From Octopus vulgaris (taxonomy: Eukaryota), in the NCBI GenBank assembly GCA_951406725.2, contig OX597817.1, forward strand, positions 46,066,001 through 46,130,000: a stretch of 64,000 nucleotides of DNA. The letters are read 5' to 3'. The notes under the pieces are model-generated. The model was not told the DNA's origin and ran no database searches. It worked only from the letters and a program-made list of their open reading frames with translations. A program made the translations under genes and the position numbers. Positions 124 to 64,000 of this stretch are shown in pieces (positions within the stretch are counted from its first letter, which is position 1; each line of letters begins with the position of its first letter).

Positions 124-129
<6 letters not shown>

Positions 130-271
130 AATATAAGAGAGTGGTCACTATATGGCTCACTCTAGCACCAGTTAATCCAAAAGGTTTCAACCACAAAAAT
201 ACATGTTTCCCATGAAAGTCAATACGATTGTTAGCTCACACGGACAGGGCAAATAAAAAATAACAAAAATA
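124..271 (-). repeat. Inverted partial copy of the 535-bp unit at the 5' end of the array
   Basis: Reverse complement of about 697-844 of the array. It abuts (TA)n on the left and switches orientation at about 272-274. Confidence 0.92.
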
Positions 272-600
272 TATGAGCCATATAGTGACCACTCTCTTAT
301 ATTTATTTTGTAAAAATATTATAATATATTATAAAATATTATAATAATCCAGGTTTCTCGGAGCACTAGGCCACTTGGTGTTGAATAGATATACTATTAA
401 ATTAGTATCTAATTCTCTCACCCTTATTAATTAATTATAATTATGCTGCATTTATTTCTAAATGCAGTATTTGTTTTCCGTGAAAGTTTGGCGCGCTGTT
501 AGTTGGGGCATTTGAATTATAACGTCGGATGTAATCAATTGAACCACACGCGTATTTATCGTTATGGTAAAATCTGGCGTGTGATTGAGTGGATTTCATC

Positions 601-696
601 CAGATAGTTTTGGCTGACGAGCTACAAGTGGATTTTTTTGTAAGTAAAATTACATTTAATTCATTAATAGCGAAACAATTGTCCCAAAATAATCTG
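601..696 (+). ncRNA. Type I hammerhead ribozyme (copy 1)
   Basis: Stem I CAGATAGTTTTGG (601-613) / CCAAAATAATCTG (684-696). Core CTGACGA (614-620). Stem II GCTA (621-624)...TAGC (668-671). GAAA (672-675). Palindromic stem III CAATTG. GTC cleavage triplet, predicted cut after 683. Confidence 0.9.
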
Positions 697-1135
697 TATT
701 TTTGTTATTTTTTATTTGCCCTGTCCGTGTGAGCTAACAATCGTACTGACTTTCATGGGAAACATGTATTTTTGTGGTTGAAACCTTTTGGATTAACTGG
801 TGCTAGAGTGAGCCATATAGTGACCACTCTCTTATATTTATTTTGTAAAAATATTATAATATATTATAAAATATTATAATAATCCAGGTTTCTCGGAGCA
901 CTAGGCCACTTGGTGTTGAATAGATATACTATTAAATTAGTATCTAATTCTCTCACCCTTATTAATTAATTATAATTATGCTGCATTTATTTCTAAATGC
1001 AGTATTTGTTTTCCGTGAAAGTTTGGCGCGCTGTTAGTTGGGGCATTTGAATTATAACGTCGGATGTAATCAATTGAACCACACGCGTATTTATCGTTAT
1101 GGTAAAATCTTGCGTGTGATTGAGTGGATTTCATC

Positions 1136-1231
1136 CAGATAGTTTTGGCTGACGAGCTACAAGTGGATTTTTTTGTAAGTAAAATTACATTTAATTCATT
1201 AATAGCGAAACAATTGTCCCAAAATAATCTG
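1136..1231 (+). ncRNA. Type I hammerhead ribozyme (copy 2)
   Basis: Identical to 601-696, offset by 535; predicted cut after 1218. Confidence 0.9.
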
Positions 1232-1670
1232 TATTTTTGTTATTTTTTATTTGCCCTGTCCGTGTGAGCTAACAATCGTACTGACTTTCATGGGAAACAT
1301 GTATTTTTGTGGTTGAAACCTTTTGGATTAACTGGTGCTAGAGTGAGCCATATAGTGACCACTCTCTTATATTTATTTTGTAAAAATATTATAATATATT
1401 ATAAAATATTATAATAATCCAGGTTTCTCGGAGCACTAGGCCACTTGGTGTTGAATAGATATACTATTAAATTAGTATCTAATTCTCTCACCCTTATTAA
1501 TTAATTATAATTATGCTGCATTTATTTCTAAATGCAGTATTTGTTTTCCGTGAAAGTTTGGCGCGCTGTTAGTTGGGGCATTTGAATTATAACGTCGGAT
1601 GTAATCAATTGAACCACACGCGTATTTATCGTTATGGTAAAATCTTGCGTGTGATTGAGTGGATTTCATC

Positions 1671-1766
1671 CAGATAGTTTTGGCTGACGAGCTACAAGTG
1701 GATTTTTTTGTAAGTAAAATTACATTTAATTCATTAATAGCGAAACAATTGTCCCAAAATAATCTG
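1671..1766 (+). ncRNA. Type I hammerhead ribozyme (copy 3)
   Basis: Identical to 601-696, offset by 1070; predicted cut after 1753. Confidence 0.9.
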
Positions 1767-2034
1767 TATTTTTGTTATTTTTTATTTGCCCTGTCCGTGT
1801 GAGCTAACAATCGTACTGACTTTCATGGGAAACATGTATTTTTGTGGTTGAAACCTTTTGGATTAACTGGTGCTAGAGTGAGCCATATAGTGACCACTCT
1901 CTTATATTTATTTTGTAAAAATATTATAATATATTATAAAATATTATAATAATCCAGGTTTCTCGGAGCACTAGGCCACTTGGTGTTGAATAGATATACT
2001 ATTAAATTAGTATCTAATTCTCTCACCCTTATTA

Positions 2035-2040
<6 letters not shown>

Positions 2041-2095
<55 letters not shown>

Positions 2096-12167: not shown

Positions 12168-12606
12168 CTTAATCCGTTTGTCTGCCCTTGTTTGTCCCCT
12201 CTGTGTTTAGCCCCTTGTGGGTAGTAAATAAATAGGTATTTCGTCTGCAGCTACGTTCTGAGTTCAAATTCTGCCGAGGTCGACTTTGCCTTTCATCCTT
12301 TCGGGGTCGATAAATTAAATACCAGTTACGCACTGGGGTTGATGTAATCGACTTAATCCGTTTGTTTGTCTGTCCTTGTTTGTCCTCTCTGTGTTTAGAC
12401 CCTTGCGGGTAGTAAAACAATAGGTATTTCGTCTATCTTTACGCTCTGAGTTCAAATTCCACCGAGATCCACTTTGCCTTTCATCCTTTCGGGGTTGATT
12501 AAATAAGTACCAGTTACGCACTGGGGTCGATATAATCGACTTAATCCGTTTGTCTGTCCTTGTTTGGCCCGTATGTGTGTGGCCTCTTGTGGGCAGTAAA
12601 GAAATA
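12168..12606 (+). mobile_element. SINE family B, headless multimer of the ~185-bp body
   Basis: TTAATCCGTTTGTCTG...AGCCCCTTGTGGGTAGTAAA repeated at about 12169, 12353 and 12541. Confidence 0.85.
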
Positions 12607-58764: not shown

Positions 58765-59360
58765 TTGTCACAATACCAGCAGTTTCGGGGGTGGGGATAA
58801 ATCTATTTCATCGACCCCAGTAATTTGTAGGTAGTTATTATATCGACCCCAAAAGGATGATAGTAATGTAGAGCTCGGCAAGATGTGAAATCGGAACCTA
58901 AGCTCGATCGAAATGCCGCTATGGATTTCGCCCGACATGCTAACGATTCTTATTTCTTTACTGTCCACAAGGGGCTACACAAATGGGGGGACAAACAAGG
59001 ACAGACAAGCGGATTGAGTCGATTACATCAACCCCAGTGCGTAACTGGTACTTACTTAATCGACCCCGAAAGGATGAGAGGCAAAGTGGACCTCGGTGGA
59101 ATTTGAACTCAGAACGTAGTGGCAGACCAAATACCTATTTCTTTACTACCCACAAGGGGCTAAACACAGAGGGGACAAACAAGGACAGACAACCGGATTA
59201 AGTCGATTTTGTCGACCCCAGTGTGTAACTGGTACTTATTTAATTGGCCCCGAAAGGATAAAAGGCAAAGTCGACCTCGGCGGAATTTGAACTCAGAACG
59301 CAGCGGCAGACGAAATACCGCTAAGCATTTCGCCCTGCATACTAACGAGTCTGCCAGTTT
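58765..59360 (-). mobile_element. SINE family B multimer
   Basis: CCACAAGGGGCTA...GACAAACAAGGACAGACAA at about 58965 and 59149; head at about 59325-59358. Confidence 0.88.
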
Positions 59361-62143: not shown

Positions 62144-62196
<53 letters not shown>

Positions 62197-62465
62197 TTAA
62201 TAAGGGTGAGGGAATTAGATACTAATTTAATAGTATATCTATTCAACACCAAGTGGCCTAGTGCTCCGAGAAACCTGGATTATTATAATATTTTATAATA
62301 TATTATAATATTTTTACAAAATAAATATAAGAGAGTGGTCACTATATGGCTCACTCTAGCACCAGTTAATCCAAAAGGTTTCAACCACAAAAATACATGT
62401 TTCCCATGAAAGTCAGTACGATTGTTAGCTCACACGGACAGGACAAATAAAAAATAACAAAAATA

Positions 62466-62561
62466 CAGATTATTTTGGGACAGTTGTTTCGCTATTAATG
62501 AATTAAATGTAATTTTACTTACAAAAAAATCCACTTGTAGCTCGTCAGCCAAAACTATCTG
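62466..62561 (-). ncRNA. Type I hammerhead ribozyme, stem III variant (CAACTG)
   Basis: Reverse complement of the HHR; plus-strand G at 62483 where the other copies have A. Confidence 0.82.
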
Positions 62562-62999
62562 GATGAAATCCACTCAATCACACGCCAGATTTTACCATAA
62601 CGATAAATACGCGTGTGGTTCAATTGATTACATCCGACGTTATAATTCAAATGCCCCAACTAACAGCGCGCCAAACTTTCACGGAAAACAAATACAGCAT
62701 TTAGAAATAAATGCAGCATAATTATAATTAATTAATAAGGGTGAGAGAATTAGATACTAATTTAATAGTATATCTATTCAACACCAAGTGGCCTAGTGCT
62801 CCGAGAAACCTGGATTATTATAATATTTTATAATATATTATAATATTTTTACAAAATAAATATAAGAGAGTGGTCACTATATGGCTCACTCTAGCACCAG
62901 TTAATCCAAAAGGTTTCAACCACAAAAATACATGTTTCCCATGAAAGTCAGTACGATTGTTAGCTCACACGGACAGGCAAATAAAAAATAACAAAAATA

Positions 63000-63095
63000 C
63001 AGATTATTTTGGGACAATTGTTTCGCTATTAATGAATTAAATGTAATTTTACTTACAAAAAAATCCACTTGTAGCTCGTCAGCCAAAACTATCTG
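63000..63095 (-). ncRNA. Type I hammerhead ribozyme
   Basis: Exact reverse complement of 601-696. Confidence 0.9.
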
Positions 63096-63115
63096 GATGA
63101 AATCCACTCAATCAC

Positions 63116-64000
63116 AAAAATATTATAATATATTATAAAATATTATAATAATCCAGGTTTCTCGGAGCACTAGACCACTTGGTGTTGAATAGATATACTA
63201 TTAAATTAGTATCTAATTCTCTCACCCTTATTAATTAATTATAATTATGCTGCATTTATTTGTAAATGCTGTATTTGTTTTCCGTGAAAGTTTGGCGCGC
63301 TGTTAGTTGGGGCATTTGAATTATAACGTCGGATGTAATCAATTGAACCACACGCGTATTTATCGTTATGGTAAAATCTGGCGTGTGATTGAGTGGATTT
63401 CATCCAGATAGTTTTGGCTGACGAGCTACAAGTGGATTTTTTTGTAAGTAAAATTACATTTAATTCATTAATAGCGAAACAATTGTCCCAAAATAATCTG
63501 TATTTTTGTTATTTTTTATTTGCCCTGTCCGTGTGAGCTAACAATCGTACTGACTTTCATGGGAAACATGTATTTTTGTGGTTGAAACCTTTTGGATTAA
63601 CTGGTGCTAGAGTGAGCCATATAGTGACCACTCTCTTATATTTATTTTGTAAAAATATTATAATATATTATAAAATATTATAATAATCCAGGTTTCTCGG
63701 AGCACTAGGCCACTTGGTGTTGAATAGATATACTATTAAATTAGTATCTAATTCTCTCACCCTTATTAATTAATTATAATTATGCTGCATTTATTTCTAA
63801 ATGCTGTATTTGTTTTCCGTGAAAGTTTGGCGCGCTGTTAGTTGGGGCATTTGAATTATAACGTCGGATGTAATCAATTGAACCACACGCGTATTTATCG
63901 TTATGGTAAAATCTGGCGTGTGATTGAGTGGATTTCATCCAGATAGTTTTGGCTGACGAGCTACAAGTGGATTTTTTTGTAAGTAAAATTACATTTAATT
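63116..64000 (+). repeat. Second array, plus-strand arm (runs off the window)
   Basis: Orientation flips at ...CAATCAC|AAAAATATTATAAT; then the unit sequence with period 535 (63405 vs 63940). Confidence 0.93.
63405..63500 (+). ncRNA. Type I hammerhead ribozyme
   Basis: Same as 601-696. A further copy starts at 63940 and is cut by the window edge. Confidence 0.9.

Follow-up and report, generated by a model that had tools for sequence, protein, structure and literature searches.

A long-armed type I hammerhead (51-nt stem II) in a non-coding tandem repeat of the octopus genome, likely a non-autonomous PLE

Introduction

Metazoan non-LTR retrozymes are described in PMC7229834 and by Li et al. 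(bioRxiv 10.64898/2026.07.22.740005) as non-coding tandem repeats of low GC content with one type I hammerhead per unit, a highly self-paired monomer and a proposed dependence on PLEs. Their units measure 170-400 nt in one account (Cervera & de la Pena 2020, PMC7229834) and 51-972 bp in the other (Li et al., 10.64898/2026.07.22.740005), and in both stem II has ~4 bp and a short loop. PLEs are recognised by insertion into (TA)n as partial tandems, together with a truncated copy in inverted orientation and a tail on one side (PMC8557442); two start sites of reverse transcription have been linked to this tail (PMC11167929). The Hydra-clade PLEs carry, in the description of Craig et al. 2021 (PMC8557442), a one-sided tail of 30-40 bp and a 3' hammerhead with a short or palindromic stem III. 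Short palindromic stems III are also found in newt satellite 2 and in the minimal PLE hammerheads (PMC4209133, PMC6155905, PMC6765202), which are reported to cleave as double hammerheads in tandem transcripts and have a helix II of 4-8 bp. Only one of nine Xenopus retrozyme dimers cleaved in vitro, and PAc is reported to transpose independently of its hammerhead, mutants of which still insert in vitro (PMC11167929).

The hammerhead presented here belongs to this already known class (retrozyme, PLE hammerhead, dimer cleavage), and its long-arm form is a variant. Its repeat resembles the metazoan retrozymes in all the features listed above, with a unit of 535 bp and a stem II of 51 nt; unlike theirs, most of the insertions have two arms and two fixed ends. 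With the Hydra-clade PLEs the repeat shares the (TA)n target, the inverted 5'-truncated arm, the one-sided tail and the type of 3' hammerhead, but its tail is ~130 bp long and it has no ORF. With newt satellite 2 and the minimal PLE hammerheads it shares the short palindromic stem III and, as a prediction, double-hammerhead cleavage, whereas its helix II comprises 17 bp in three helices.

A long hammerhead arm has a precedent in Selaginella PLE-X, which is PLE-linked, has ~50 nt between the core halves and is flagged in File S2 of Craig et al. 2021 (PMC8557442) for its departure from the canonical structure. This is an endonuclease-less plant element, drawn in that file as a 9-bp stem with a 34-nt loop and not analysed there as a conserved rod. 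The Hydra rows of File S2 (PMC8557442) have ~12-26 nt between the core halves, compared with 53-60 nt in the octopus Hydra-type elements described below. Our search of the literature found no 50-60-nt stems II in animal PLE hammerheads, and Lunse et al. 2017 or the supplement of PMC7229834 may show such variants. The main text of the octopus repeat paper PMC13282606 mentions neither hammerhead nor ribozyme nor retrozyme.

Results and Discussion

Structure of the hammerhead

The type I hammerhead at 601-696 of the window (the whole 64,000-nt stretch of Octopus vulgaris DNA analysed here) combines an intact core with a long stem II (Table 1). It has the CUGANGA core, the GAAA and a UH cut site, and its three helices surround the core, are open at stem I and covary. 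Folding of 595-705 with RNAfold returned stem I and three stacked stem II helices of 4, 8 and 5 bp (17 bp) at z = -4.8, and none of 200 shuffles was equally stable. The unusually long stem II of three stacked helices (~50 nt) that a sequence-only reading of this DNA had proposed is thereby confirmed, at 51 nt. The same reading took the internal loops of stem II to be symmetric, which is right for the proximal 2x2 loop but not for the distal one, where the opposition is 4x3 and not 3x3; the U-run in the distal loop counts 7 U and differs in length between copies. Its stem I of ~13 bp with a 2x2 loop or a wobble is indeed extended and does contain a wobble, and the exact count is 12 pairs (one G·U) and an A·A mismatch. 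The self-complementary stem III that it had pointed out is a perfect palindrome at 675-682.

Table 1. Features of the hammerhead and of its two insertions in the window
Feature	Position	Strand	Basis
Type I hammerhead, copy 1	601..696	+	core, fold, local Rfam scan
Stem I 5' strand, with 7 pairs inside and 5 pairs outside an A·A mismatch	601..613	+	fold, alignment
Catalytic core CUGACGA	614..620	+	sequence
Stem II, 51 nt: 4 bp, 2x2 loop (625-626/666-667), 8 bp, 4x3 loop, 5 bp, 6-nt loop	621..671	+	fold, alignment
Stem II tip hairpin; similar 5-bp helix in sister families and Hydra-clade PLE hammerheads	639..654	+	comparison
GAAA (672-675), palindromic stem III ACAAUUGU (675-682), predicted cut after C683	672..683	+	sequence, fold
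Stem I 3' strand; U690 corresponds in position to the docking U of loop 1	684..696	+	fold, contact comparison
Hammerhead copy 2, predicted to form a dimer with copy 1	1136..1231	+	sequence, double-hammerhead fold
Hammerhead copy 3	1671..1766	+	sequence
Long arm: 3.3 tandem 535-bp non-coding units, up to fixed end B in (TA)n	274..2043	+	repeat and end comparison
Short inverted arm, up to fixed end A in (TA)n	124..271	-	repeat and end comparison
Second insertion, arm up to end B; hammerheads 63095-63000 and 62561-62466	62188..63116	-	repeat comparison
Second insertion, opposite arm, past the window edge to end A; hammerhead 63405-63500, partial copy from 63940	63116..64000	+	repeat comparison

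The expectation that searches with short loop II limits would miss such a motif was borne out, since the hammerhead was absent from the 144 matches at E<=1 of a whole-window Rfam scan, and a local scan (201-base search) placed RF00163 at 30 bits (E 7e-6), below its 34-bit gathering score. The whole-window matches were rejected as microsatellite artefacts. The shortfall of RF00163 accompanies 39 nt that the model treats as an insertion in loop II. Most likely the long stem II would act as a normal 4-bp stem II whose loop holds a 39-nt hairpin insertion, and this insertion may be common to the Hydra-clade PLE group.

The tandem unit and its insertions

The hammerhead sits in a 535-bp non-coding tandem unit without a long ORF and occurs three times in tandem, in identical form (614, 1149, 1684), a repetition that the earlier reading did not mention. 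Three further complete copies and a partial one lie at 62.5-64.0 kb of the window, and in one of them (62466-62561, minus strand) a point change breaks the stem III palindrome.

An exact pattern search of the 2.8 Gb genome gave 1,084 matches, compared with 2 for the reversed control, and 99 of the first 100 matches listed belong to the 535-bp family. Among 35 insertions examined, which were chosen from the genome match lists of the 535-bp unit, 26 consist of two arms in inverted orientation, of which one stops at end A and the other at end B; the remainder comprise 7 one-armed insertions, 1 atypical insertion and 1 that was not fully captured. The arms end near unit position 406 and at 535, and both ends continue into (TA)n. 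The family is young, nearly identical and protein-free. Its layout is that of a retrozyme in having tandem units with one type I hammerhead each and no protein, and that of a PLE in having partial tandems, an inverted 5'-truncated arm, two fixed 3' ends (the tail) and a microsatellite target. Since the two-armed layout, the fixed ends and the (TA)n match the PLE signature of partial tandems, inverted arm and tail, the repeat is regarded as a likely PLE-type insert. We consider it probable that the 535-bp repeat is a non-autonomous PLE (a non-LTR retrozyme) which is copied by the enzymes of Hydra-clade PLEs and for which double-hammerhead cutting is predicted. In such a process the PLE protein would nick (TA)n, and reverse transcription would start at two sites ~130 nt apart, one per arm.

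The units of an array mostly have private variants in common, on both arms, which suggests one RNA template per insertion. Arrays reach 13 units, so reverse transcription must have crossed intact cut sites, and this fits circles and uncut RNA equally. The longest arrays occur in a large subfamily (L280-L292) that has C at window position 609 (unit position 171), which creates a C·A mismatch in stem I and weighs against the reading preferred here. In one long array (L013, G000:C3:179749694-179752814) the variants recur with a period of two units, as might result from a dimeric template or from duplication at a later stage.

Conservation and sister families

Two sister non-coding families, B and E, align with the 535-bp unit at 68-77%. 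Covariation, which the sequence-only reading had proposed to check across genomic copies, was found in an alignment of families A, B and E: of 29 pairs, 11 differ in both partners, a count that none of 500 shuffles reached and that compares with 0-4 in slid controls. The set covers three related families, and 11 of its 15 rows were selected with a pattern in which the 3' part of the motif is fixed. In alignment A2 the coordinates of one row were wrong, and that row contributed little. Conservation on a wider scale was assessed in 16 representatives from 19 long-stem clusters, three clusters being left out. The first four stem I pairs served as a filter for these representatives and are not counted as conservation; of the unfiltered pairs, stem II pairs 2-4 are present in 16, 16 and 15 of the 16, and all 16 have a perfectly palindromic stem III hexamer. 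The proximal 2x2 loop of stem II is confined to families A, B and E and not retained in the wider long-stem families.

Conservation of the core, the stems and the palindrome with compensatory changes across 16 diverged representatives indicates selection on the ribozyme fold. This argues against the improbable alternative that the hammerhead is largely an inactive passenger, in which case the repeat would spread from uncut multimers and stem II would be kept as a rod or a protein-binding site. That alternative gains from family B, which was amplified to 2,088 candidates despite many abundant copies with CCGA core mutations, as well as from the PAc hammerhead mutants that still insert in vitro, and two further points in its favour come from the cleavage analysis below.

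In families B and E (L107-L136, L203-L232) a U·U pair closes stem II and the predicted cut falls at GUA. A 594-bp tandem of family B (L101:1-1880) has an internal inversion that splits the hammerhead and has been amplified at least three times in place.

Cleavage in tandem transcripts

In constrained folds of two adjacent units the double hammerhead reached -187.1 kcal/mol and two monomers -178.4 kcal/mol, a difference of 8.7 kcal/mol. The model gives stem I a probability of 0.85 of pairing across the two units. The short palindromic stem III and tandem neighbours that are computed to be able to form a double hammerhead correspond to the dimer type. The dimer-type cleavage foreseen from the sequence is thus upheld by computation and comparison, with the palindrome present in 16 of 16 representatives and the double hammerhead predicted to be favoured in tandem. 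In tandem transcripts stem I would form across units and the two palindromes would build an 8-bp stem III; cutting after C683 would then release 535-nt monomers, which may circularise. The excised monomer, folded as a circle, is highly paired (z -7.9, 30 shuffles).

The unconstrained fold of the tandem lies 4.8 kcal/mol below the double hammerhead, with the core mis-paired and a cross stem III probability of 0.002. The predicted cutting is therefore likely to be slow or protein-assisted, as reported for PLE hammerheads. Within a single unit, too, the MFE fold pairs the core wrongly, with 678-683, and the active monomer fold lies 5.6 kcal/mol higher. This mis-pairing is what an inactive passenger would lead one to expect, and so is the distribution of 5' truncations, which were not enriched at the predicted cut site (2 true cases compared with 3 at a control position). 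The 5 matches at the cut site consist of these 2 true truncations, 1 internal deletion and 2 single-base deletions, while the control site gave 8, of which 3 were true. Dimer-type cutting nevertheless remains our preferred reading.

Docking of stem II on stem I

The Schistosoma-type contact requires that loop 2 has a 3' A and loop 1 a 5' U, along with an extrahelical pyrimidine (PMC2632901). The present hammerhead resembles that of Schistosoma in having an internal loop 1 with a 5' U and a C·A opposition in loop 2: the C625·A667 opposition, with its 3' A, and U690 after six stem I pairs match the contact positions. A667 may dock on U690. The 3' A and the 5' U are kept in families A, B and E, partly through the selection of rows. 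CChMVd minus (Dufour et al. 2009, PMC2632901), in which an internal loop in domain II docks on domain I, is a precedent for docking of this kind. Here both partner loops would be small, 2x2 each, and unlike in CChMVd minus and Schistosoma (PMC2632901) the extrahelical pyrimidine at the end of loop 1 is missing, position 607 being G; the equivalent position is G or A in family E and a pyrimidine in family B. The earlier suggestion that an internal loop of stem II docks on stem I is consequently retained in part: A667 and U690 match, but the extrahelical pyrimidine is absent and the 2x2 loop occurs only in families A, B and E. From this comparison of positions, it appears plausible that the proximal loop of stem II docks on stem I.

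If such docking offset the 2-bp stem III, the motif might be a fast monomeric ribozyme like the invertebrate retrozymes that cleave as single copies. The matching contact positions would suit this, as would the Rfam alignment, which places CA and AAUA on the canonical CAAAUA loop, and PMC7229834 describes stems III of 2 bp with a tetraloop as the more stable type. Against these points stand a loop 1 without the extrahelical pyrimidine, a loop of 2x2 where Schistosoma has 4x4, the 5.6 kcal/mol that separate the active monomer from the MFE fold, and a palindrome that is perfect in every one of the 16 representatives. A fast monomer is accordingly very improbable in our judgement.

Hydra-clade PLEs as candidate partners

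A second genome pattern for long-stem hammerheads gave 3,381 matches and none in the control. Most of them belong to one family, in which a 53-nt-stem hammerhead lies downstream of a Hydra-like endonuclease in 27 of 30 loci. In a second lineage, 18 of 30 Hydra endonuclease loci have a hammerhead with a 56-60-nt stem II within the fetched flank and 12 have none there. One locus of this lineage (L245, G000:C1:99948000-99953000, minus strand) has an open 947-aa frame with RWK, DKT, CxCx5C, CxxC and CxH, and a 60-nt-stem hammerhead ~1.5 kb downstream of the frame. By its motifs it is of the Hydra clade, with RWK, DKT, the CxCx5C linker and, at the C terminus, GIY-YIG flanked by CxxC and CxH. The frame has a long Asn-rich linker between RT and endonuclease. 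The long stem II is a lineage trait in the octopus genome, found in several PLE-linked families. The sequence-only reading had called the architecture atypical, and beside the published forms the long stem II is unusual, but with thousands of copies in these families it is not a one-off.

Relatedness of the 535-bp family to the Hydra lineage was approached by several comparisons. A model built from Hydra-lineage hammerheads only gives the motif at 601-696 34 bits, against 11.5-19.5 bits for other long-stem families; the sister families B and E score 12-22 bits, with E at 12-16. The tip helix of the Hydra lineage covaries (U-A 4, C-G 4, U-G 1) and resembles the tip hairpin of 601-696. Compared globally, stem II of 601-696 shows no significant similarity to that of the Hydra hammerheads (z -0.9 to 1.2). 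Because the Hydra model favours the motif over its sisters B and E while the global similarity is non-significant, descent of the 535-bp family from the Hydra lineage is only suggestive. An autonomous parent with ends homologous to the unit was not found among 30 GIY-YIG, 16 extended, 36 D-type and 30 Hydra loci, the searches having scored the best 150 of thousands of candidates; beside the 34-bit model score there was only a match of 44 nt to L257 (E 0.001-0.002).

The weak homology of stem II to the Hydra hammerheads leaves some room for mobilisation by the abundant Neptune-type PLE instead, with an independent origin of the long stem II, and many open 781-aa Neptune-type frames do end in (TA)n. 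In these elements, however, the hammerhead is short and has a U3·A8 core, and the ends differ; nested insertions aside, long stems II were seen only beside Hydra-type frames, so we hold a Neptune partner to be unlikely. The candidates that had seemed to link Neptune to the long-stem form, L069 and L093 (long-stem hammerhead) and L101 (sister tandem), were rejected as nested insertions in terminal (TA)n. The Neptune-type PLE with the 781-aa frame terminates in a short hammerhead (L091:5575-5610 and related loci L068-L101), in which the U3·A8 core variant is combined with a palindromic stem III.

With Hydra-clade enzymes as the preferred partners, one may speculate that stem II in Hydra-clade PLEs and their parasites is a two-part module, in which the proximal loop docks and the tip hairpin is bound by RT. 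This proposal is tentative and we would sooner doubt it than rely on it. If true, a two-part stem II would couple RNA cutting to RNP assembly, and an RT-bound tip hairpin would explain why the protein-free 535-nt RNA has retained the long arm.

Censuses of hammerheads with short stem II limits would miss thousands of octopus motifs (3,381 and 1,084 exact matches with the two patterns). The presence of a young protein-free family and of open Hydra-type frames in one genome offers a ready test of the role of PLE hammerheads, and the same pairing of the 535-bp family with Hydra-type frames offers a test of how a non-autonomous RNA recruits PLE enzymes.

Additional observations in the window

At window positions 400-1100, three sequencing runs that are only guessed to be RNA (X2, X6 and X7) yielded contigs with many A>G and T>C differences, including one at A675 (core A15.1) in X2. 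These changes account for 40/44, 17/20, 16/30 and 2/5 of the places in contigs from guessed-RNA runs, and for 3/8 in two deep DNA-like runs. The excess would fit ADAR editing of the inverted arms; it is not used as evidence here, since genomic subfamilies differ by the same types of change. Elsewhere in the window, at 12176-12558 and 58951-59319, there are two-copy 184-188-bp tandems of a dispersed repeat, probably a SINE.
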